Assembly (NCBI GenBank): GCA_965216325.1
Contig: OZ244160.1
Coordinates: 800,001 to 864,000, forward strand
Length of the DNA stretch: 64,000 bases
Reading direction: 5' to 3'
DNA from: Coraliomargarita sp.
Lineage (GTDB): Bacteria > Verrucomicrobiota > Verrucomicrobiia > Opitutales > Coraliomargaritaceae
A program made the position numbers and the translations under genes. The stretch's first letter is position 1; each line of letters opens with the position of its first letter. The notes under the pieces were generated by a model. It saw only the letters and a program-made list of their open reading frames with translations. It was not told the DNA's origin and made no database searches. Positions 11,172-20,042 of the stretch are shown here, piece after piece.

Positions 11172-12557
11172 CTACAGGGCATCCAACGGGCTGAGTATCT
11201 GATCTGTCTGGTCTTCCATCACGTGCAGATAGATCATTGTGGTCTCCACGCAGGTATGCCCGAGAAACTCTTGAACGGTTCGTATATTGGTGCCGTTTTC
11301 CAGTAGATGCGTGGCGTAGCTGTGCCGCAGCACGTGCGAGTTCGAGCGTTTGGGGATTTCAGCCTCTGCTGCTGCCCTTGAGAGCTGCTTCTGGTAGGCT
11401 CTCGGCAGAACATGATGCCGCCGCTTGGGTGCATCCGGCTCGCCCCGAGGGTCCCTCGATAGCCGGTCCATCGGAAAAAACCAAAACCACGCCCAGCTCT
11501 TTGCGGCTTTCGGCATCTTCTTACCCAATGCATTGGGCAGATAGACGCCGGGCGTATCTGCCTTGCGGTCTGCCTCGTGTAGCGGACGTATCGCCTCTAA
11601 ATGCGCTTCAAGCGACGTCTTCAGTGACTTGGGTAGTGGCACACATCGGTCCTTATTGCCCTTCGAGGCGCGTATGTAGAGTTTGTTGCGTTCCAGATCA
11701 ATGTCCTTGACCCTCAAGCGGCACAGCTCGGAGATACGTAGGCCGCAGCCATACTGTAGCCGTGCCATCAAGGCCCATTTGCCGTGCATTTTGTCGAACA
11801 GTCGCTTGATCTCACCCATCGAATAGACGACCGGGTAATACTTCTTCGGATTTGCCTTCACGTAGTCGCTGAAGTCGCCCAGCTCTAGTTTCCGCACCTC
11901 CCGTAGGAAAAATACACCTGCATTGAGTGCCTGCTTCTGTGTGCTTGCTGCGATGCCTTCTTCCACTGCCAGATAGCTGAGGAAGCGTTTCAGAGCTGCC
12001 TCATCAAAATCCTCCAAGCCATTTTTGCTGCCCAGAAAGCGCTCCATTCGCCGAATCCAGCCAAGGTAGGCCTCCTCTGTCCGGTAAGACTTCTGCTGCA
12101 CCCGCATCAAGCGCACCGTCTCCTCATACCAAGGGTCAATCGGTGCCTGCTTCTGAAGCTCTGCGACTGTGTGTGCATACTGTTGGCGGCCATCCGCAAA
12201 TTCCCGTGCTGCAGTCGCTTCCGCGGATAGGTTTACCTCTCCGCGCTCCTCCCGCGGTTTAGGCCGTGCATTCGATTGTTTGGCCGGCTGCTCCGCAACG
12301 TTCCGGCGCTTTGCTGCCTCGCGGAAAAACCAGTTCAAGCCGTCCATCCACTGTTTTACCTGCCATTCTGCGGGGTGACGCGTCTCCACTAGGTGCTCAA
12401 TGAAATCGCGCGCTGAGGTCGTCGTTGCCGGGCTCGACTCCCGCTTTAAATGCCCCAGGAACCAGTTGATAATGATGCGGTGCCGTTCACGTTCACTCTC
12501 ATGCAGCCGTGCGGATTTGAGAGCCTCGGACCAATTAGGAAATGAGATTGTCGTCAT
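11172..12557 (-). CDS. intI: Integron integrase with long N-terminal extension
   Basis: YGCGLRISE, HVLRHSYATH and LGH..VETTMIY catalytic motifs, plus the IntI-specific insert VYLPNALGKK.P.A.KSWAWFWFFP...RRHHV; divergent from the cassette array; likely start ATG at 12557. Confidence 0.95.
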   Translation of the reverse strand: MTTISFPNWSEALKSARLHESERERHRIIINWFLGHLKRESSPATTTSARDFIEHLVETRHPAEWQVKQWMDGLNWFFREAAKRRNVAEQPAKQSNARPKPREERGEVNLSAEATAAREFADGRQQYAHTVAELQKQAPIDPWYEETVRLMRVQQKSYRTEEAYLGWIRRMERFLGSKNGLEDFDEAALKRFLSYLAVEEGIAASTQKQALNAGVFFLREVRKLELGDFSDYVKANPKKYYPVVYSMGEIKRLFDKMHGKWALMARLQYGCGLRISELCRLRVKDIDLERNKLYIRASKGNKDRCVPLPKSLKTSLEAHLEAIRPLHEADRKADTPGVYLPNALGKKMPKAAKSWAWFWFFPMDRLSRDPRGEPDAPKRRHHVLPRAYQKQLSRAAAEAEIPKRSNSHVLRHSYATHLLENGTNIRTVQEFLGHTCVETTMIYLHVMEDQTDQILSPLDAL

Positions 12558-12789
12558 AACCGAAATAGTGCACGTAAGTTCACTTTTCGCAAGTGAGATC
12601 AGCAAAATACCTGAAGTTCAGATCGCAGTGGCGTAGAAGCTCGCGCGCGCGTATTCGGAGACATTCTGACACACTGACTGTCGAGTTATACTGAAACGCC
12701 GCAATCTAAGTATGCTGCAATTCGCTCATATAGAGCAATTAGCGAATTTCTTTTTATTGGTCTTGTAACGTTTTAAGGATGATGCAAAT

Positions 12790-12823
12790 CTTTCAAAAAA
12801 TACACTAATAAAAACTGTTATGG
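12790..12823 (+). other. attI region; putative crossover G|TT at 12817
   Basis: GTTATGG (12817-12823) is the exact complement of the cassette 1 R'' CCATAAC; A-rich context upstream of intI. Confidence 0.7.
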
Positions 12824-13260
12824 AAATGAAATTTGAAGAAGTCAAAGATGCCAAAACAGTCCTGAAATATCTTTCCGAATCGGGCATCGGTGGGCTGAAT
12901 GAAAAAGAAATCGACAGGTGCATATCCCTTCTGTGCAAGTCCCACGTTCCATATACCGCAAAATCTGGCGGAGATATGAGAGTCATTGTCGCTTCGCAAC
13001 TTTTGAACACCGCGAAGCAGCAACTTTTTATACAAAGAATAGAAGAAGAAAATCAAAACACTCAGAATTGGTTCAAGGTTCTTGCTATAGGTTCCCTTGC
13101 AATAGGAGCCTTATCATTCCCATGGCAGGCAGGGATAGATACCCACAAATTATGCAGATTTGTCCTACCAGAACATATGACATCCAAATGCGGTGAGCCG
13201 AAGGAAATGGTGGACATCCAAGAGCAACCACAACCCTCTCAATCATCGAAGGAAACCAAT

Positions 13261-13266
<6 letters not shown>
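12820..13266 (+). CDS. Cassette 1 hypothetical protein with one TM segment
   Basis: ORF fills the cassette; stop lies within R''; the start may be 12826. Confidence 0.75.
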
Positions 13267-13809
<543 letters not shown>

Positions 13810-13813
<4 letters not shown>

Positions 13814-13871
13814 AACCAGACGCTACGGGGCAACGCCGCTAGCGCGCCGTCGCCCGAGCTTCACGTTATGA
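13810..13871 (+). other. attC2
   Basis: CTAGAAC (complement of GTTCTAG) ... GTTATGA. Confidence 0.9.
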
Positions 13872-14431
13872 AGTTAAAAATTGTTTTAACGCTCTTAGCT
13901 GCCACCTCAGCACTTTTTAGTGCTGGCGAGCCGAAGATCTATAAAGAAATCACTCTAGCCTTTGGGGATGTATATGGTGGGAACGATTGGGGAGTTTATC
14001 TCAATGGGGAACGATTGAACGAAACACTCGACGAAGCCCTTGAGAGGTATAGTGATACACCAATCCTATCTGTTATAGTTGAAGTAAACCCTAGATTGCC
14101 ACACAATCGAGGAGTATTAAATGGACATGACTTGTTTGAAGACCCAAACCTCGGTGATCGATATTTGATCAAGCAGGGAGAAGCACGAAAGCTGCGGTTC
14201 GTTCGAACACCTGTAACTCGCACAGAAGCATGGGCGCGCATCAAAGAATATATTCAGGAGCAAGAATTGGACATGAACGAAGTCAGGCTTCAGAGCATTA
14301 GATTTTTACATCGAGAAGAAACCAATCATTACAGATGGCATTTTATTTACCCTCGCAAGAGGGCCAGCGGAAAGCTTACCATATTCTACGATCTACTTAC
14401 CGACGGAATTACCCACGGATACGCCCCTTAA
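13868..14431 (+). CDS. Cassette 3 hypothetical exported protein
   Basis: Signal-peptide-like MKLKIVLTLLAATSALFSA; ATG lies inside R'. Confidence 0.8.
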   Translation: MKLKIVLTLLAATSALFSAGEPKIYKEITLAFGDVYGGNDWGVYLNGERLNETLDEALERYSDTPILSVIVEVNPRLPHNRGVLNGHDLFEDPNLGDRYLIKQGEARKLRFVRTPVTRTEAWARIKEYIQEQELDMNEVRLQSIRFLHREETNHYRWHFIYPRKRASGKLTIFYDLLTDGITHGYAP

Positions 14432-14436
14432 CACAA

Positions 14437-14497
<61 letters not shown>

Positions 14498-14504
14498 AAA
14501 TAAA

Positions 14505-14909
14505 ATGATCATTCTCATTTCAGCCATAGGACTCACGATAGCACTCGGGCTACTCTGCATAGCCGTAAGGAACAAAAGAACCTGGCTACAAATGACCATT
14601 GCAGCGGTGTCAATTTTAGCAGCAGCTATTGTCTCTGGTAATATCGGAGTCGTAGTTGGAAGCAGCTTAGAAGAGAATAAAAATAGAATACTGATTCACG
14701 ATTTAGCATCAGAGCTAAAACGAATACCTGAAGGATCTAGAACATTACTGGATCACTCCTTAATCGATTTAAACGAAGCACACCAAAAGAAAGATGATGC
14801 TGACTTAGTCCAGAAAGACTATGTCTCGATGGCGGAGATAGCTTTGATCTCCAATGCACGATCCTACTCACTAGAAAAGCAGCCCCAACAAGACGGAGTG
14901 AGCAACTAG
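14505..14909 (+). CDS. Cassette 4 hypothetical membrane protein
   Basis: Two N-terminal hydrophobic helices; the ORF reads into attC4. Confidence 0.75.
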   Translation: MIILISAIGLTIALGLLCIAVRNKRTWLQMTIAAVSILAAAIVSGNIGVVVGSSLEENKNRILIHDLASELKRIPEGSRTLLDHSLIDLNEAHQKKDDADLVQKDYVSMAEIALISNARSYSLEKQPQQDGVSN

Positions 14910-14948
14910 TGTGCTGCGCCCACTAGTCGCTCATCCTCGACGTTAGAC
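14883..14948 (+). other. attC4
   Basis: CCCCAAC, GAGTGAGCAACTAGTG/CACTAGTCGCTCATCCTC arms, GTTAGAC. Confidence 0.9.
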
Positions 14949-14955
14949 AGAAATA

Positions 14956-15486
14956 ATGAAATCAAAAATCTCAGCACTCTGGAAGTTCATCAACACCCCG
15001 ATAATCATACTGCTGCTTGCGTGTTTAGCACTCCCCCTGGTGTTGCAAACCTTTCTATCAGTCATCTACAGAATCGAGCGGCTTAGTCATTCATACCAAG
15101 ACAATTCCATAGTATTAAATCCAACTCGCTTTAAGGAAGTCAGAGATAAAATCATCTGGTCTCAATTTGAAATGAGAGAAGACTTAGGACGTAAAGACCT
15201 CCTGTTTTTTCCGAAAATCAAAAATGAATCGAACGAAACACTAACAGCAATCAGAGCATCACTCCTAATTTATGACGAAGAAGGGAAACTACTAGACGTA
15301 ACACCTATATTTATTCAGTCAGAGTATTTGTTCCCAGGAGAGGAATACACAGCAAAAATATCGATTAAATATGGCTTTTCTAGCATGCCATCCGCAGATC
15401 TACGTGCAGCTGTAATTGATGGAAAGCAAAAGCTGAAATTTGAAGGCAGGATCGACAACTTCTCAGTTATTCGAGACGTCCGCTAA
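14956..15486 (+). CDS. Cassette 5 membrane-anchored protein, FxLYD-like domain
   Basis: N-terminal TM helix; IKNESNE..LLIYDEEGKLLD..LFPGE pattern. Confidence 0.7.
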   Translation: MKSKISALWKFINTPIIILLLACLALPLVLQTFLSVIYRIERLSHSYQDNSIVLNPTRFKEVRDKIIWSQFEMREDLGRKDLLFFPKIKNESNETLTAIRASLLIYDEEGKLLDVTPIFIQSEYLFPGEEYTAKISIKYGFSSMPSADLRAAVIDGKQKLKFEGRIDNFSVIRDVR

Positions 15487-15507
15487 ACTAGAACCGAAGT
15501 AAATTAG

Positions 15508-15833
<326 letters not shown>

Positions 15834-16139
15834 GTTGAACAAGCCCGCCCTTGGATTAACGGCGCGGCTTAGTATATGCGAAACGCTTTTGGCGGCACTG
15901 CTGGAGGGGCGTTCGGATCGACGCGGCTAGGAGATTTGTAAATCTCAAGCTGCGGCAGGCATGTGGTTTTCCGGCATCATGCCGTAAAACCACATCAGCA
16001 CAGAGAGTTGGTGTGGGCGCAGCTAAATAATGGCGTTTTCGTATCCACGCTACGGATACATCCCAAAAACGGGCACAAGCAAGCACGGCCCAAATCTGAT
16101 GGGATTCGGGGCTGCGGCCTGTCTGTTGAACACGGTTGA

Positions 16140-17243
16140 TCATTTGCGGTAAAGTAAGGCGGTGCTCAGCGGTGGGCCACGGACTGGACGGAGCTTGCCG
16201 ACGCGGTGCAGCTGCCCCTCGCAACAAGGACAACGCAGAGGCTGTTCTTCAGGTAGTTGGATCGCAGGTGCACGGCCGCCGAGCAGGAAGCGCAGCCTGC
16301 GGTATTTATCCCGCGCGGCAGCTGAGAGGGTGCCATAGTGCCGCACGCGTGTCAGCCCCTTGGGCAGAACATGCAGCAGCCAGCGGCGTATCAGCTCGGC
16401 GGGCTCAAGAGCCATCAGCCTGCGCTGGCCCGTAGCCGAATCGGTCCACCATAGCCGCACACGCCCTTGCGCATCGTAACCAGCCAGACGTTCTTCACTG
16501 AAGGCGCTCTTGCCCACATACGCCGCGAGGTAGCGTAGTGCACGTTTGCCACGACCAACCGGTTGAACGTTCACGTTCCAATCCATACGCGCGAGTTGTG
16601 GATCCAGTTCAGCAGACCGGCCCGGATGTTTCTCGCGCAACGCACGCAGGAACTGGTCGCGATAGCTGCGCGCCAGCGCGGCATACGGCAACAGGTAGTT
16701 CTCGTGCTTGGCGCGGATTACTTCGCATCCGCTCTGGCTGAGTGCAGCGGCAGGCACGAGCACGTGCACATGCGGGTGATACTGCACTTGCCGTGTCCAC
16801 GTATGCAGCACCGCCACAAAGCCCGGCTCGCCACCAAAGTGCTTCGGATTGGCAAACAGTTCTTTGATCGCTCCAGAGCTGGCCGCGAACAACAACTGAT
16901 AGGCGACCCGGTCGTAGCGCAGGAAGAACCCGCGCAGTTGCTCGGGCACCGTGAAGGTCAGCATGAAGTATGGCACCGGTAAGCGGCGAGCCTGTTGGCG
17001 TGCTGACCACAGCTGCTGCGTGCGCCCTCCACAACTCGGACAGGCTCGATGGTTGCAGCTGTGATACACATAGTGCTCACGCTCGCAACTGGCACACAGG
17101 TGCACATGCCCGCCCAATCTAGACGTGCGACAACTCAAGACGGCTTCGACTGCTCGCCAGTGTGCGGCAGGGATCTTGTGTGCCCCGCCGCGCGCGCTGA
17201 CATACTCCGGCCAATGCCGCCGCAGTAGATCGGCCAGCCTCAA
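16140..17243 (-). CDS. IS91-family (HUH Y2) rolling-circle transposase
   Basis: Zn-binding CRT..LGG..CASC..HSCNHRACPSC, TFTVP, HUH motif HPHVH, YLAAY, HVLPKG..RVRHYG. Confidence 0.93.
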   Translation of the reverse strand: MRLADLLRRHWPEYVSARGGAHKIPAAHWRAVEAVLSCRTSRLGGHVHLCASCEREHYVYHSCNHRACPSCGGRTQQLWSARQQARRLPVPYFMLTFTVPEQLRGFFLRYDRVAYQLLFAASSGAIKELFANPKHFGGEPGFVAVLHTWTRQVQYHPHVHVLVPAAALSQSGCEVIRAKHENYLLPYAALARSYRDQFLRALREKHPGRSAELDPQLARMDWNVNVQPVGRGKRALRYLAAYVGKSAFSEERLAGYDAQGRVRLWWTDSATGQRRLMALEPAELIRRWLLHVLPKGLTRVRHYGTLSAAARDKYRRLRFLLGGRAPAIQLPEEQPLRCPCCEGQLHRVGKLRPVRGPPLSTALLYRK

Positions 17244-18205
17244 CGCTTGCTGCGCTTCGACAAGGCCGGAGCGATCACACTGTCAAACAGTGCGCTCTGG
17301 CTCTGGCGGCCACCTTCTTCACTTAGCTCGGTTACATGCAGATACACCAGCGTGCTCTTCAGTTCCGAGTGGCCGAGATAGCGACTGACCTGACGAATCG
17401 ACACCCCGTCCTCCAGCAAATGTGTGGCAAAACTATGCCGCAAGGTATGCACCGTGAAGTGCTTGTTGATGCCACTATTGGCGCGGATGATCCGCATCGC
17501 CATCTCCAGCGCCGAGCTGCTCATCGGCTTGGCGCTGCGGTGCATCGCCTGCGCCTGAGAGATGCCTGACTGCTTCCAGCCGCGCCCCACGCCAGGGAAC
17601 AGCCAGTCCGGATTGCGGTGGCACTTATAAAATGCCCGCAACCGCTTGACCATTGCCGGGCAAATCGGCACCTCACGCGCCTTGTTGCCCTTGCCATGGC
17701 GCACGCGAACGACGCCGCGTCCAGAGTCGATATCCGTCGGCTTGAGCTGCAAGGCCTCCTGTAAACGCAAACCACAGTGATAGATCAGCGAGAGCACCGC
17801 CCGAAAGCGACCCTCATGCACACAGGCCAGCACACGCCGCACCTCGTCGCGCGTGAGCACGCTCGGCAAAGGCTCGCGCCGCTGCAGCGTGAACTCCGAC
17901 CACAGCTTCCACTCCCGGGCCAGCACATCACGGTAAAGCGTCCGAATCGGCACCAGCGCCTGATTCACCGTTGACGCGGCCAGCTTTTGGTCGTCGCGCA
18001 GGTAGATCAGATAGTCCAACACCTGACGTTCCGATAGACGGCGCAACCCCGGGCCCTTCGGTTGGTAGTGCTCGCCCAAGCGATTGACCCAATCCAGATA
18101 AGCCTTACGACTACGAGGCGAGTGAGCTTTGCTATGGACATGCGCATAGAACTGTTGATACGTTTGCGAACACTGAGTCTTTGATGATTTGGTATTTTTT
18201 TTCAT
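17240..18205 (-). CDS. Tyrosine recombinase associated with the IS91-like transposase
   Basis: YHCGLRLQE, GKGNKAR, HTLRHSFATHLLE, LGHS..STLVY; lacks the IntI insert; 4-bp TTGA overlap with the transposase start. Confidence 0.93.
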   Translation of the reverse strand: MKKNTKSSKTQCSQTYQQFYAHVHSKAHSPRSRKAYLDWVNRLGEHYQPKGPGLRRLSERQVLDYLIYLRDDQKLAASTVNQALVPIRTLYRDVLAREWKLWSEFTLQRREPLPSVLTRDEVRRVLACVHEGRFRAVLSLIYHCGLRLQEALQLKPTDIDSGRGVVRVRHGKGNKAREVPICPAMVKRLRAFYKCHRNPDWLFPGVGRGWKQSGISQAQAMHRSAKPMSSSALEMAMRIIRANSGINKHFTVHTLRHSFATHLLEDGVSIRQVSRYLGHSELKSTLVYLHVTELSEEGGRQSQSALFDSVIAPALSKRSKR

Positions 18206-18309
18206 CCGGGCAGGTTGGGGCAACTCAGCCTAGCCCGGAACTTTTGACTTTAGAAACCACCCACCAAGACGCCCAAGCACTTAACCAACAGCCGCCGCGC
18301 AGCGGCTTT

Positions 18310-18365
18310 GTTCAACCAGACAGAGTGAGCAACGGCATACGCCGCGCTCATCTTCGACGTTCACT
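18310..18365 (+). other. attC7
   Basis: GTTCAAC ... GAGTGAGCAAC ... CGCTCATCTTC ... GTTCACT; same family as attC4 and attC8. Confidence 0.88.
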
Positions 18366-18374
18366 GGAAAGAAA

Positions 18375-18411
18375 TTGACATTTTAATGTTTTAGCGTTTT
18401 AGTGCTAAATT
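18375..18411 (+). promoter_or_regulatory. Putative internal promoter/operator of TA cassette 8
   Basis: TTGACA at 18375, 17-bp spacer, TTTAGT; repeated TTTTAG motifs just before the ATG. Confidence 0.55.
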
Positions 18412-18633
18412 ATGAAACGCGCTACCGTATATTTTGAAGAGGACCTCCACCTGGCCCTCAAAATGAAGTCTGCTGAGATTTCAACTCCAGTGTCTGAACT
18501 AGTGAATGACGCTGTCCGTTCGGCACTGCTCGAAGACGCTGAGGACTTAGAAGCATTCAAAGAAAGAGAGAATGAACCCGTAATCGACTTTGAAGCTTTT
18601 GTTGCTGCGCTAAAAGAAGATGGAAAGCTATAA
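18412..18633 (+). CDS. Cassette 8 antitoxin (CopG/ribbon-helix-helix)
   Basis: MKRATVYF beta-strand, SELVNDAVR, acidic C-terminus; overlaps the toxin gene. Confidence 0.85.
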   Translation: MKRATVYFEEDLHLALKMKSAEISTPVSELVNDAVRSALLEDAEDLEAFKERENEPVIDFEAFVAALKEDGKL

Positions 18634-18880
18634 GATCGTCATCAAGAAATCGGCAGCGAAAGAAATCGAGAAAATCGAAAAGAAAGACCGAATTCGTATT
18701 GTTGAGAAGATTCGAACCCTCGCTCAAGACCCACACCCAGCAGGGAGTAAAAAACTTTCAGGACAAGAAAAATATAGAATCAGACAAGGCAACTACAGAA
18801 TCTTGTATCAGGTTATTGATACAAAATTAGTCATCAATGTTGTTAAAGTGGGACATCGCCGAGACGTCTACAAAAACTGA
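18620..18880 (+). CDS. Cassette 8 RelE/ParE-family toxin
   Basis: KSAAKEIEK, KKLSG, YRIRQGNYRILY, VKVGHRRDVY. Confidence 0.92.
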   Translation: MESYKIVIKKSAAKEIEKIEKKDRIRIVEKIRTLAQDPHPAGSKKLSGQEKYRIRQGNYRILYQVIDTKLVINVVKVGHRRDVYKN

Positions 18881-18940
18881 CGTGAACCAGTCGGAGTGAG
18901 CAACGGGACAATCGCCCCGCGCTCATCCTTTACGTTAACG
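18881..18940 (+). other. attC8
   Basis: CGTGAAC (pairs with GTTCACT, 1 mismatch) ... GTTAACG. Confidence 0.88.
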
Positions 18941-18973
18941 CCGTCGCCACATCTCGACGATCGACGAAAGAAC

Positions 18974-19411
18974 ATGAAGCTCAAGATCCCTATCGTTTTG
19001 ACAATTTTTGCCGCAAGTAACCTCCTTGCGGTCACAGCAACTAAAGAATTGGACGCTGGGTTGTTGTCCATTTTCGAGCAGATGCAGTCAGGTTCGGATG
19101 CTTCAAAGCTCAAAGGAAAAGAATTTTGTGCCGACCTGACAGTGAAGATCGCCACGGAAAAGTTGCTGATATTCACGGATGCTTACCTCCAAGCGGATGA
19201 AGAAACAAAATACCAAATCGGGAAGTGGATATTCACGCCGAATCAAGTTTCTGAAGTCGCAGCAAAGCGTGGAGATGCATTGACAGTAAAGTTTAAGATA
19301 GAAGAGGTCAGAACAGAAGCGCCCTACGCAGACATGCCACACTTTACCGCAACGATCCTATCCATGGAGCCGACAGGAAGCATGGTTGATCCAGTCGATG
19401 GTGGACAATAG
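18974..19411 (+). CDS. Cassette 9 hypothetical exported protein
   Basis: Start ATG 18974, signal-peptide-like MKLKIPIVLTIFAASNLLA; stop lies inside attC9. Confidence 0.75.
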   Translation: MKLKIPIVLTIFAASNLLAVTATKELDAGLLSIFEQMQSGSDASKLKGKEFCADLTVKIATEKLLIFTDAYLQADEETKYQIGKWIFTPNQVSEVAAKRGDALTVKFKIEEVRTEAPYADMPHFTATILSMEPTGSMVDPVDGGQ

Positions 19412-19452
19412 ATTTCGCTGCGCTCATCTATTGCCACATCTCACCGTTGGGG
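19385..19452 (+). other. attC9 (ATC core)
   Basis: GTTGATC, GATGGTGGACAATAGAT/ATCTATTGCCACATC arms, GTTGGGG. Confidence 0.82.
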
Positions 19453-19462
19453 AGAAGAAAAC

Positions 19463-19507
19463 TTGAAAAAAACGGAAAAAGAACTTAATTTAGACTCATT
19501 ATGAGTC
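19463..19507 (+). promoter_or_regulatory. Putative promoter and palindromic operator of TA cassette 10
   Basis: TTGAAA at 19463; palindrome GACTCAT-T-ATGAGTC (19493-19507) overlaps the start codon. Confidence 0.6.
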
Positions 19508-19752
19508 CAATTTTAAGCCCGTATTCGGCCAGTATATCAGAGCTAAAAAAGAATCCCAGCCAGCTTATAGAACAAGCTGACGGTGAAGTAGTTGCCATTC
19601 TAAACCACAATAAGCCAACAGCTTACCTAATCCCAGCAGAGACCTATGAGTGGATTAGCAACCTAATCGAAGATCAGGAACTACGAGATATTATTGAACA
19701 AAGAGAAGCAGAGAAAACACAGGCAAAGGAAATTAGCCTAGATGAGCTATAA
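19501..19752 (+). CDS. Cassette 10 Phd/YefM (StbD-like) antitoxin
   Basis: ASISELKKNP, VAILNHNKP.AYLIP. Confidence 0.92.
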   Translation: MSPILSPYSASISELKKNPSQLIEQADGEVVAILNHNKPTAYLIPAETYEWISNLIEDQELRDIIEQREAEKTQAKEISLDEL

Positions 19753-20029
19753 ACTAAAATTCCTACCGAGTGCTCTCAAGGAATGGAATAAAATCGGATC
19801 TACTATCCGAGGGCAGCTAAAAAAGAAGCTGGAGGAGAGATTGAAGGAACCAGTAGTTCCCGGGGACCGACTTCATGGCTTTAAAAATCACTATAAGATT
19901 AAGCTTCGATCCTCCGGTTACAGATTAGTCTACGAAGTCGATGATGGAGAAATCTCAGTCATCGTTATTACCGTTGGGAAGCGAGAGCGGTCAGAAGTCT
20001 ACAGTAAGGCTGAGACGCGCAGCAAGTAA
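19742..20029 (+). CDS. Cassette 10 RelE/StbE toxin
   Basis: ALKEW, YKIKLRSSGYRLVY, VGKRERSEVY. Confidence 0.93.
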   Translation: MSYKLKFLPSALKEWNKIGSTIRGQLKKKLEERLKEPVVPGDRLHGFKNHYKIKLRSSGYRLVYEVDDGEISVIVITVGKRERSEVYSKAETRSK

Positions 20030-20042
20030 CCCCAAACGCCGT

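Follow-up and report, generated by a model that had tools for sequence, protein, structure and literature searches.

The 64,000-nucleotide stretch analyzed here (the window; positions 800,001 to 864,000 of contig OZ244160.1 in GenBank assembly GCA_965216325.1, Coraliomargarita sp.) contains a chromosomal integron, and within its cassette array lies a mobile element encoding a tyrosine recombinase and an IS91-family transposase. The mobile unit spans positions 15792-18316 (15791-18315 if the cut is AA^C, the caret marking a cut or junction here and below), is 2,525 bp long either way, and is inserted inside one host attC, between R'' and L'' and just after the R'' box (xxxxAAC^C), in antisense orientation to the cassettes. 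The boundaries, target position, orientation, conserved ends and hairpin, and protein families described below are direct observations; as to mechanism, we infer that the recombinase, which resembles the integron integrase (IntI), probably integrates a hairpin site carried by the element and that the HUH transposase supplies the single-stranded DNA (ssDNA) copies, and we hold this view of the protein roles and of the exchanged strand with moderate confidence.

Boundaries of the element and the split host attC

The genome consists of one contig of 3.06 Mb (C1), and the copies of the element in it were aligned together with their flanks. The three copies (in the window and at loci L002 and L003) are identical over window positions 15791-18319 except for one single-nucleotide polymorphism at 17728 and one homopolymer indel (the T run at 18195-18202 is longer by one T in one copy). 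This genome holds three full copies only; isolated hairpins or derivatives lacking the genes were looked for in it and not found. The shared stretch takes in the whole stem-loop and R' of what appears to be the left attC (15792-15840), and of the right attC it covers R'' GTTCAAC (plus CAG) only. The flanks of the three loci are unrelated to one another: the left-flank heptamers differ (ACACATC, ACCGAAC, and GCCTAAC), the right flanks are three different attC remainders that diverge after CAG, and on the coding strand the outer flanks start with GATG, GTTC, and GTTA. Because the three copies share exactly this stretch and their flanks differ, 15792-18316 is the mobile unit. In the strain's own sequencing runs, contig breaks fall at 15791 and 18319, and the depth of the element is ∼2.5 to 4 times that of its flanks. 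There is no duplication at the target beyond one ambiguous C in the three copies, and identity between element and target at the crossover is limited to AAC-C (ATC-C in the window), or ∼4 nucleotides (nt). All three copies look active.

The two seemingly complete attCs at either side of the element are hybrids. The left one is composed of the host R'' box (ACACATC, 15785-15791, plus strand), the element hairpin, and the element's GTTGAAC; this R'' box belongs to the cassette at 15563-15791 and is complementary to the R' (GATGTGT) that the attC before it has at 15561. The right one is composed of the element's GTTCAAC and the rest of the host site (18317-18365, plus strand), which includes CAG, L'', a loop, L', and R' GTTCACT, has its partner R'' AGTGAAC at 18883, and gives a P of 0.005 for arm complementarity. 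An initial annotation of the window had described a two-gene antisense unit that forms an intact cassette, has a complete attC site on either side, and splits neither, with inverted termini that supply R' and R''. The unit is confirmed as a tyrosine recombinase and an IS91 transposase by its open reading frames (ORFs) and profile matches, and its termini do provide core boxes, with GTTGAAC at 15834 in R' position and GTTCAAC at 18310 in R'' position, both of which fit the chain of the array. The anatomy had to be revised: one host attC is split, given that the three copies share 15791-18319, and what moves is 15792-18316, not 15835-18359. The accompanying idea of a mobile element that mimics cassette ends is retained insofar as this is a recombinase-IS91 element living in integron arrays, but not as an intact cassette. 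The other suggestion of the annotation, a machine that generates ssDNA circles and could create cassettes, is a possible reading.

These alignments also bear on a simpler account, in which a plain IS91-like element bounded by its 15-nt repeats landed at a GTTC in a tiny cassette or formed an intact cassette between complete attCs. The inverted repeats and the GTTC/GAAC words at both ends would suit such an element, and the two flanking sites do look like attC and fold; however, the left stem-loop shows 100% identity across three contexts that are otherwise unrelated, whereas host attCs vary among themselves, it is conserved together with the element in other genera, and the right attC is different in each copy, so that a G^TT-bounded cassette is not what moved. 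We regard this account as hardly credible.

The chain of attC sites is unbroken across the array, in that the last four bases of each R' complement the R'' of the next site. The successive pairs are GTTCTAG with CTAGAAC, GTTATGA with TCATAAC, GTTGGGT with CCCCAAC (one mismatch), GTTAGAC with GTCTAAC, GATGTGT with ACACATC, GTTGAAC (15834) with GTTCAAC (18310), and GTTCACT with AGTGAAC. The cassette upstream of the element (15561/15563-15791) has no ORF of at least 50 amino acids (aa), and both of its cores carry an A/T variant that travels with the cassette (R' GATGTGT rather than GTT..., R'' ACACATC rather than ...AAC). At the second locus (L002:4030-4200; C1:1302335-1302500) the target retains the R''-L'' half of an attC only; a further attC-like site lies ∼130 nt on and no intI is nearby, which makes this an array without integrase. 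The third copy (L003; C1:2841916-2844443) is ∼10 kb from the third intI of the genome.

Genes, ends, and relatives of the element

The two ORFs of the element overlap and are both antisense to the array, with the recombinase gene at 17240-18205/18223 and the transposase gene at 16140-17243 (minus strand). The transposase (367 aa), whose TTG start overlaps the recombinase stop (TTGA), matches PF04986 (4e-43, 147.9 bits) and PF14319 (5e-29, 100.6 bits) in Pfam and scores 339.3 bits against NF033538 (cut-off of 125) over model positions 2-354 of 356. It has a Zn domain and a Y2 domain, with the sequences HPHVHV and YLAAY, which we take to be HUH-Y2 transposase motifs, and by its profile matches it is a full-length IS91-family HUH (Y2) enzyme. 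The recombinase (321 aa from the ATG at 18205) matches PF00589 and PF13495, and its best NCBIfam model is TIGR02249, the integron integrase, with the XerA, XerC, and XerD models scoring behind it. This match comes in two stretches and at 191.9 bits stays below the cut-off of 265, because an IntI-specific segment is missing: the recombinase is 30% identical to the IntI of the window and all catalytic landmarks align (the catalytic tyrosine is the Y of ...STLVYLH), with the alignment gapped at the IntI segment LPNALGKK...WFWFFP. Integron integrases are defined by the family threshold and the IntI-specific extra domain, and the recombinase has neither. The missing segment agrees with the grouping by Smyshlyaev et al. 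(10.1101/542381), the accessible part of which places IS91-borne recombinases in an "Integron-like" subgroup without the IntI insertion.

Right after the start codon of the recombinase stands a run of eight A residues (18195-18202; ATGAAAAAAAA). In the third copy (C1:2841916-2844443) the run has nine; beyond the third codon the frame is shifted, and the ORF that remains starts at a later TTG and encodes 279 aa. The run is a possible slippage switch of the recombinase.

The left end of the element comprises a leader, the inverted repeat, and the core (18206-18316, minus strand), reading TTGAAC-AAAGCCGCTGCGCGG on the coding strand, and the right-end core and inverted repeat (15834-15848, minus strand) read GCGGGCTT-GTTCAAC. 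Within the site that belongs to the element, this right-end GTTCAAC is the box of R'' type; on the plus strand it serves as R' of the left hybrid attC. The 15-nt inverted repeat (GTTGAACAAGCCCGC at 15834-15848 and GCGGCTTTGTTCAAC at 18302-18316) is 87% complementary; by itself it ranks 12th among 47 inverted pairs of the region, and its weight comes from its conservation at the ends of relatives, not from its own rank. The attC-like hairpin module at 15792-15833 (minus strand) consists of a spacer, a 9-bp stem (AGTTATCAA/TTGATAACT) extended by a GC stem, a loop, and a spacer. It is identical in all three copies of the genome and near-invariant in all seven Puniceicoccaceae loci, and its DNA fold is at -11.1/-11.2 kcal/mol (z, -3.6/-3.3). 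An attC is an imperfect palindrome of ∼55 to 140 nt with RYYYAAC...GTTRRRY boxes, paired L boxes, and extrahelical bases on one arm. In the element such boxes and a stem are present once the ends join (GTTCAAC...GTTGAAC), a form that is present at locus L021. The unpaired bases of the hairpin are on different arms in different relatives.

A noncoding region on the minus strand runs from the transposase stop to the right-end repeat (15849-16139) and includes a covarying hairpin (15961-15995) and a conserved block; by analogy with oriIS of IS91, it is presumed to be the origin region. The covarying hairpin has 17-nt arms that are 94% complementary, and its position is kept with different stem sequences at three further loci (L048, L052, and L053); an origin and a terminator are both possible roles for it. 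The initial annotation had also pointed to a third GTTGAAC at 16125, just past the transposase stop, and to about 290 bp of noncoding DNA. Both are present (16125-16131, 9 nt past the stop, and 299 nt at 15841-16139). A functional role for this third GTTGAAC was considered and rejected, since it is not conserved at L008 to L011 or in the seven-way alignment and the word occurs in 19 copies in the window versus 8.1 expected; we read it as a chance occurrence.

A scan with the transposase yielded 37 loci of relatives. The recombinase gene is directly upstream of the transposase gene at 31 of these loci, the other six being cut by contig ends or fragments, and the pair is also found in all three Rhizobium copies. 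One copy in another Verrucomicrobia genome (L008) has the same layout, with 68% identity in the transposase and 81% in the recombinase; it starts with G^TTGAACAAAGCCGCT, ends with GGGCTTGTTCAAC, the hairpin, and CTTCAGG^GTTAGAC, and has compensating changes in its stem. The host DNA into which it is inserted is an attC remainder in reverse orientation, next to an antisense ORF. The right end is almost invariant in seven loci of Puniceicoccaceae and Thalassobacterium, and the outer flanks on the coding strand at seven relatives' loci start with GTT (three loci), GAT, GGT, TTT, and ATT. More distant relatives occur in Prosthecobacter and other Verrucomicrobia (46 to 49% identity) and in Chloroflexota and Gammaproteobacteria (∼36%). 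The 5' end TTGAAC-[A/G/T]AAGC(C)GCT.CGCG is conserved among the relatives in Verrucomicrobia, Chloroflexota, Gammaproteobacteria, and Rhizobium, and the 3' motif GGCTT[G/A]GTTCAA[C/T] followed by a hairpin was present at 23 of the 30 relatives' loci scanned. The 3' hairpins of distant relatives have quite different sequences, and in 12 Chloroflexota ends compensatory double changes affect 4 of 12 stem pairs. At L021 the hairpin directly abuts the TTGAAC of a second copy, which gives the joined form GTTCAAC, hairpin, GTTGAAC; the head-to-tail copies (L021:170-300) differ by one base in the 5' arm of the hairpin, and they are therefore a true tandem rather than an assembly of a circle.

Several of these loci have features of their own. 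At L049:558-640, the element is reduced to a stump (the hairpin and 7 nt, GTTGAACAAGCCCG) that caps a yefM-yoeB-like cassette; here the array gives way to ordinary chromosomal genes. In a metagenome copy (L098) the 5' flank is itself a hairpin followed by GTTGAACAAAGACGCC, which suggests that one element inserted into the end of another. The Rhizobium johnstonii 3841 plasmids pRL7, pRL10, and pRL11 (L045 to L047) carry three identical recombinase-IS91 copies with homologous ends and a hairpin, and a transposase gene lies 385 to 414 nt downstream of each (of the IS5 family in two cases and annotated "transposase" in the third); these neighbors may reflect a different target preference.

Target sites and proposed mechanism

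Targets were assessed by the complementarity of the arm duplex, a test that passes ∼4 of 6 native attCs and for which some start coordinates are off by 1 to 2 nt; an earlier constrained-fold test was dropped, as it favored long prefixes and missed attCs that are plain by eye. All seven copies or relatives with both flanks are at R'' of attC-like sites; they are the three copies of this genome, L008, L011, and the gammaproteobacterial L033 and L036. Arm complementarity reached a P of ≤0.005 in six of these seven occupied targets. The host flank of 15 reconstructed targets ends in AAC (10 targets), AAT (4 targets), or GAC (1 target). Wherever it could be determined, the orientation was antisense and the position at R''; an antisense ORF of at least 80 aa that stops no more than 51 nt from the junction, the signature of a cassette read in reverse, was present in 12 of 22 flanks, and a sense ORF of at least 140 aa was nearby in 5 of the 22. 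Independent insertions at the same position in different attCs, by which an attC-specific element is recognized, are thus represented by all three copies here and by L008, L011, L033, and L036. Homologs with ends internal to the terminal motifs, at sites unrelated to attC, would have refuted the initial annotation; the close homologs do not show this pattern, as 5/5 copies or relatives in Verrucomicrobia and 2/2 in Gammaproteobacteria with both flanks are at R'' of attC-like sites.

These targets speak to the possibility that the host IntI inserted the element as it would any ordinary cassette, only through the "wrong" strand of the attC that received it. Read along its own genes, the element does have the layout of a canonical cassette (TTGAAC, genes, GTTCAAC, hairpin, G^TT), three IntI genes are present in the genome, and two of the three copies are in arrays near an intI (the window copy and L003, ∼10 kb from the third). 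But every determinable case is antisense at R'' (12/22 flanks with the ORF signature and 7/7 with both flanks), and the bottom-strand preference of IntI would make antisense insertion rare rather than the rule. Further, the element brings its own recombinase (31/37 loci), and the relatives on Rhizobium plasmids multiply at non-attC sites, with no integron feature in the regions inspected. Movement by the host integrase is, in our estimation, very unlikely.

IntI cleaves folded attC at 5'-RYYYAA^C in the 5' arm and exchanges one strand, with replication doing the rest, and an extra domain of this enzyme reads the extrahelical bases by which the bottom strand is selected. In the mechanism that we propose for the element, the HUH transposase would make single-stranded circles by rolling-circle replication from the right end, the recombinase would carry out a single-strand exchange in which the element's folded hairpin recombines with the 5' arm (RYYYAA^C) of the target attC top strand, and replication would complete the insertion. 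Such an exchange would resemble that of IntI on two folded attC sites, without the strand-selecting insert of IntI. The joined ends of the circle would form a perfect site (GTTCAAC, hairpin, GTTGAAC), the expected circle junction being the last bases of the element, ...GCGGCTTTGTTCAA, followed by C-CCTGAAGTT, and after excision the restored host site would be expected to read ACACATC followed by CAGACAGAG. By analogy with IS91, displacement from the right end would release the strand complementary to the genes, which is also the strand that must join the top strand of the target, so that the roles of the two proteins would fit together.

Two observations on the junctions and ends are relevant here. 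First, two-strand exchange by tyrosine recombinases needs 6 to 8 bp of identity, and the ∼4 nt of crossover identity therefore fits a single-strand exchange better. Second, the one canonical IS91 copy that we examined lacks a recombinase gene, its terminal fold is not significant (z, -0.55/+0.37), and its end abuts GAAC, so on the basis of this copy the hairpin goes with the recombinase. The element has a GTTC between its inverted repeat and its hairpin, which places the hairpin outside the canonical HUH end, yet the hairpin moves. Application of the canonical IS91 rule at this inner boundary was rejected, as the tetranucleotide is in opposite polarity to that of the canonical copy and no clear nick site results. 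Lagging-strand targeting was likewise not supported, with the target top strand on the lagging-strand template in one of three copies according to cumulative GC skew; the skew of C1 peaks near 1.1 Mb and has its minimum near 1.8 Mb, extremes that would give very unequal replication arms of ∼2.4 and 0.7 Mb.

The HUH transposase could instead perform the whole move, leaving the recombinase only to resolve head-to-tail multimers that arise from rolling-circle replication. If it cut a single strand (behind AAC at the left junction and behind GTTCAAC on the right), much as IS200/IS605 enzymes cut beside subterminal hairpins, an ssDNA circle would be released and then pasted after an AAC that precedes a similar hairpin, as the attC top strand offers. 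The accessible text of one study describes IS91 as moving in ssDNA form by rolling circle (PMC7923331), which is compatible with this alternative as well as with the recombinase-mediated integration that we favor, and the tandem at L021 would be a task for a resolvase. Both plus-strand junctions follow AAC (ATC in the window), and one-strand cuts there would restore attC seamlessly; however, the crossover AA^C of the RYYYAAC box at the foot of the hairpin is also the position used by IntI, and the recombinase is IntI-like. A short-word target would accommodate the half attC at L002 and the many non-attC flanks, but the canonical IS91 end abuts GAAC directly without a hairpin, and, given the GTTC that separates the inverted repeat from the hairpin, ends of the canonical HUH type would leave behind a hairpin that in fact moves. 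We consider it unlikely that the transposase acts alone.

Several observations weigh against integration by the recombinase at a folded attC. Single-strand cutting after AAC by the HUH enzyme ("peel and paste") is just as good an explanation of the junctions. The seventh of the occupied targets, at L002, has the 5' half of an attC only and a P of 0.69, and a folded target may accordingly not be needed. The hairpin bulge falls in a 3' arm both in the window and at L010, but on the coding strand in the former and on the noncoding strand in the latter, and the asymmetry of the spacers is reversed in Chloroflexota; because these asymmetries are inconsistent, no single exchanged strand is indicated. 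No uninterrupted target was found in 40 relatives' genomes queried with 15400-15793, the conserved attC at 15509-15567 being the sole match, and the contigs from four runs of the strain contained neither a circle junction nor a joint that skips the element, the sole joint listed in them concerning the attC at 15511-15558. In a blind metagenome sample of 79 loci that share a 24-nt left-end motif, 63 were distinct with enough flank, and 14 of these 63 passed the attC test in their 5' flanks at a P of ≤0.05; a few more are attC by eye, and about half have nothing attC-like. The Rhizobium relatives are beside IS5-type or other transposase genes and not attC. Since many metagenome flanks and the Rhizobium sites are unlike attC, homing to attC, which holds throughout the lineage of this element, characterizes certain lineages of the recombinase-bearing IS91 subgroup and not all of them.

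We also entertain a broader reading, which strikes us as quite unlikely, in which these elements would be autonomous cassettes, with an HUH-generated ssDNA circle, an attC-like hairpin end, and an IntI-like recombinase, devoid of the strand-selecting IntI insert, that pastes into the attC top strand, and would act as a source of new attC-bearing cassettes. Hairpin ends may then stay in place as the working attC of a neighboring gene, for which the stump on the toxin-antitoxin cassette at L049 is offered as a seen instance, and read-through rolling-circle copying could carry flanking genes.

The integron of the window has its cassette array on the plus strand at ∼12700-20040, as judged from ORFs and intergenic regions, with a GC content of 43 to 47% versus ∼54% and an element region of 61 to 62% GC. 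Its IntI (11172-12605, minus strand, 477 aa) lies outside the element, scores 339.5 bits against TIGR02249 (cut-off of 265), and has an N-terminal extension of ∼160 aa without a Pfam match. The genome encodes three such paralogs that are mutually 39% identical (window 11172-12605, C1:2766085-2767434, and C1:2853694-2855013) and therefore has three integrons. Downstream of the element are two toxin-antitoxin cassettes, one with a small ORF and a ParE-family toxin (18412-18880) and one with Phd/YefM and a ParE/RelE-family toxin (19501-20029).

Significance and comparison with known systems

We found no published description of an IS91-type element that targets attC, in a search that did not extend to ISfinder, TnPedia, subscription journals, and supplements. 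ISfinder members of the IS91 family with an upstream "phage integrase" gene include ISAzo26, ISWz1, and ISSod25; the accessible part of one paper treats ISWz1 solely as a carrier of resistance regions (PMC11322121). The element ISShvi3, found in an integron of Shewanella (PMC9229058), is probably another instance of this phenomenon that was mentioned only briefly, a comparison made by description rather than by sequence; the accessible text of that study reports finding no IS that interrupts an attC site, and for ISShvi3 it states neither a target rule nor a hairpin nor any connection to a recombinase.

The element would be the third kind of specialized attC invader, after group IIC introns and IS1111-attC elements, with different enzymes, and the only one of the three that combines a recombinase from IntI's own subgroup with an attC-shaped site. 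For annotation, each insertion creates two hybrid sites that can be mistaken for ordinary attCs, so that cassettes are miscounted and the split site is hidden. For mechanism, it would unite in one natural element an HUH enzyme that produces ssDNA and a tyrosine recombinase that recombines hairpins, which makes strand choice by IntI-like enzymes without the IntI insert and the origin of attC sites accessible to testing. If the reading as autonomous cassettes were true, the element would not only supply new cassettes with attC sites but also be an extant relative of the ancestor of the integrase/attC pair.

Like the IS91 family (IS91, IS801, and IS1294), the element has a Y2 HUH transposase with a zinc-binding N-terminal domain, short terminal inverted repeats, ∼300 nt of noncoding DNA after the transposase gene, and no target duplication, and it shares with the recombinase-bearing subgroup a coupled, co-oriented recombinase gene immediately upstream of the transposase gene (with the TTGA overlap). 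It departs from the family in its target, the R'' box of attC in one orientation, and from the canonical copy examined in its outer end, which is a hairpin with RYYYAAC/GTTRRRY-type boxes rather than a repeat that abuts GAAC/CAAG (i.e., GTTC/CTTG), the hallmark of an IS91 right end.

The element resembles integron cassettes and IntI in its hairpin site with complementary 7-nt boxes, its crossover at AA^C (G^TT), and its IntI-matching recombinase, and in its own orientation it reads, like a cassette, as genes, an attC-like site, and G^TT. In contrast to cassettes, it is antisense to all ORFs of the array, is at R'' rather than R', and carries its own recombinase and transposase; a gene cassette would be G^TT-bounded and in array orientation, whereas the unit is 15791-18319 and not 15835-18359. 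The three near-identical copies fit copy-making transposition, while cassette shuffling alone adds no copies.

The known attC-specific invaders, according to the accessible part of PMC9229058, are IS1111-attC elements and group IIC-attC introns, the latter antisense to cassettes. The element homes to attC as both of these do and is likewise antisense, as the introns are. The machineries are distinct, however: IS1111-attC elements use a DEDD transposase and a guide RNA, group IIC introns use a reverse transcriptase and a ribozyme, and the element has an HUH enzyme and a tyrosine recombinase and, unlike either of the others, brings an attC-like site of its own.

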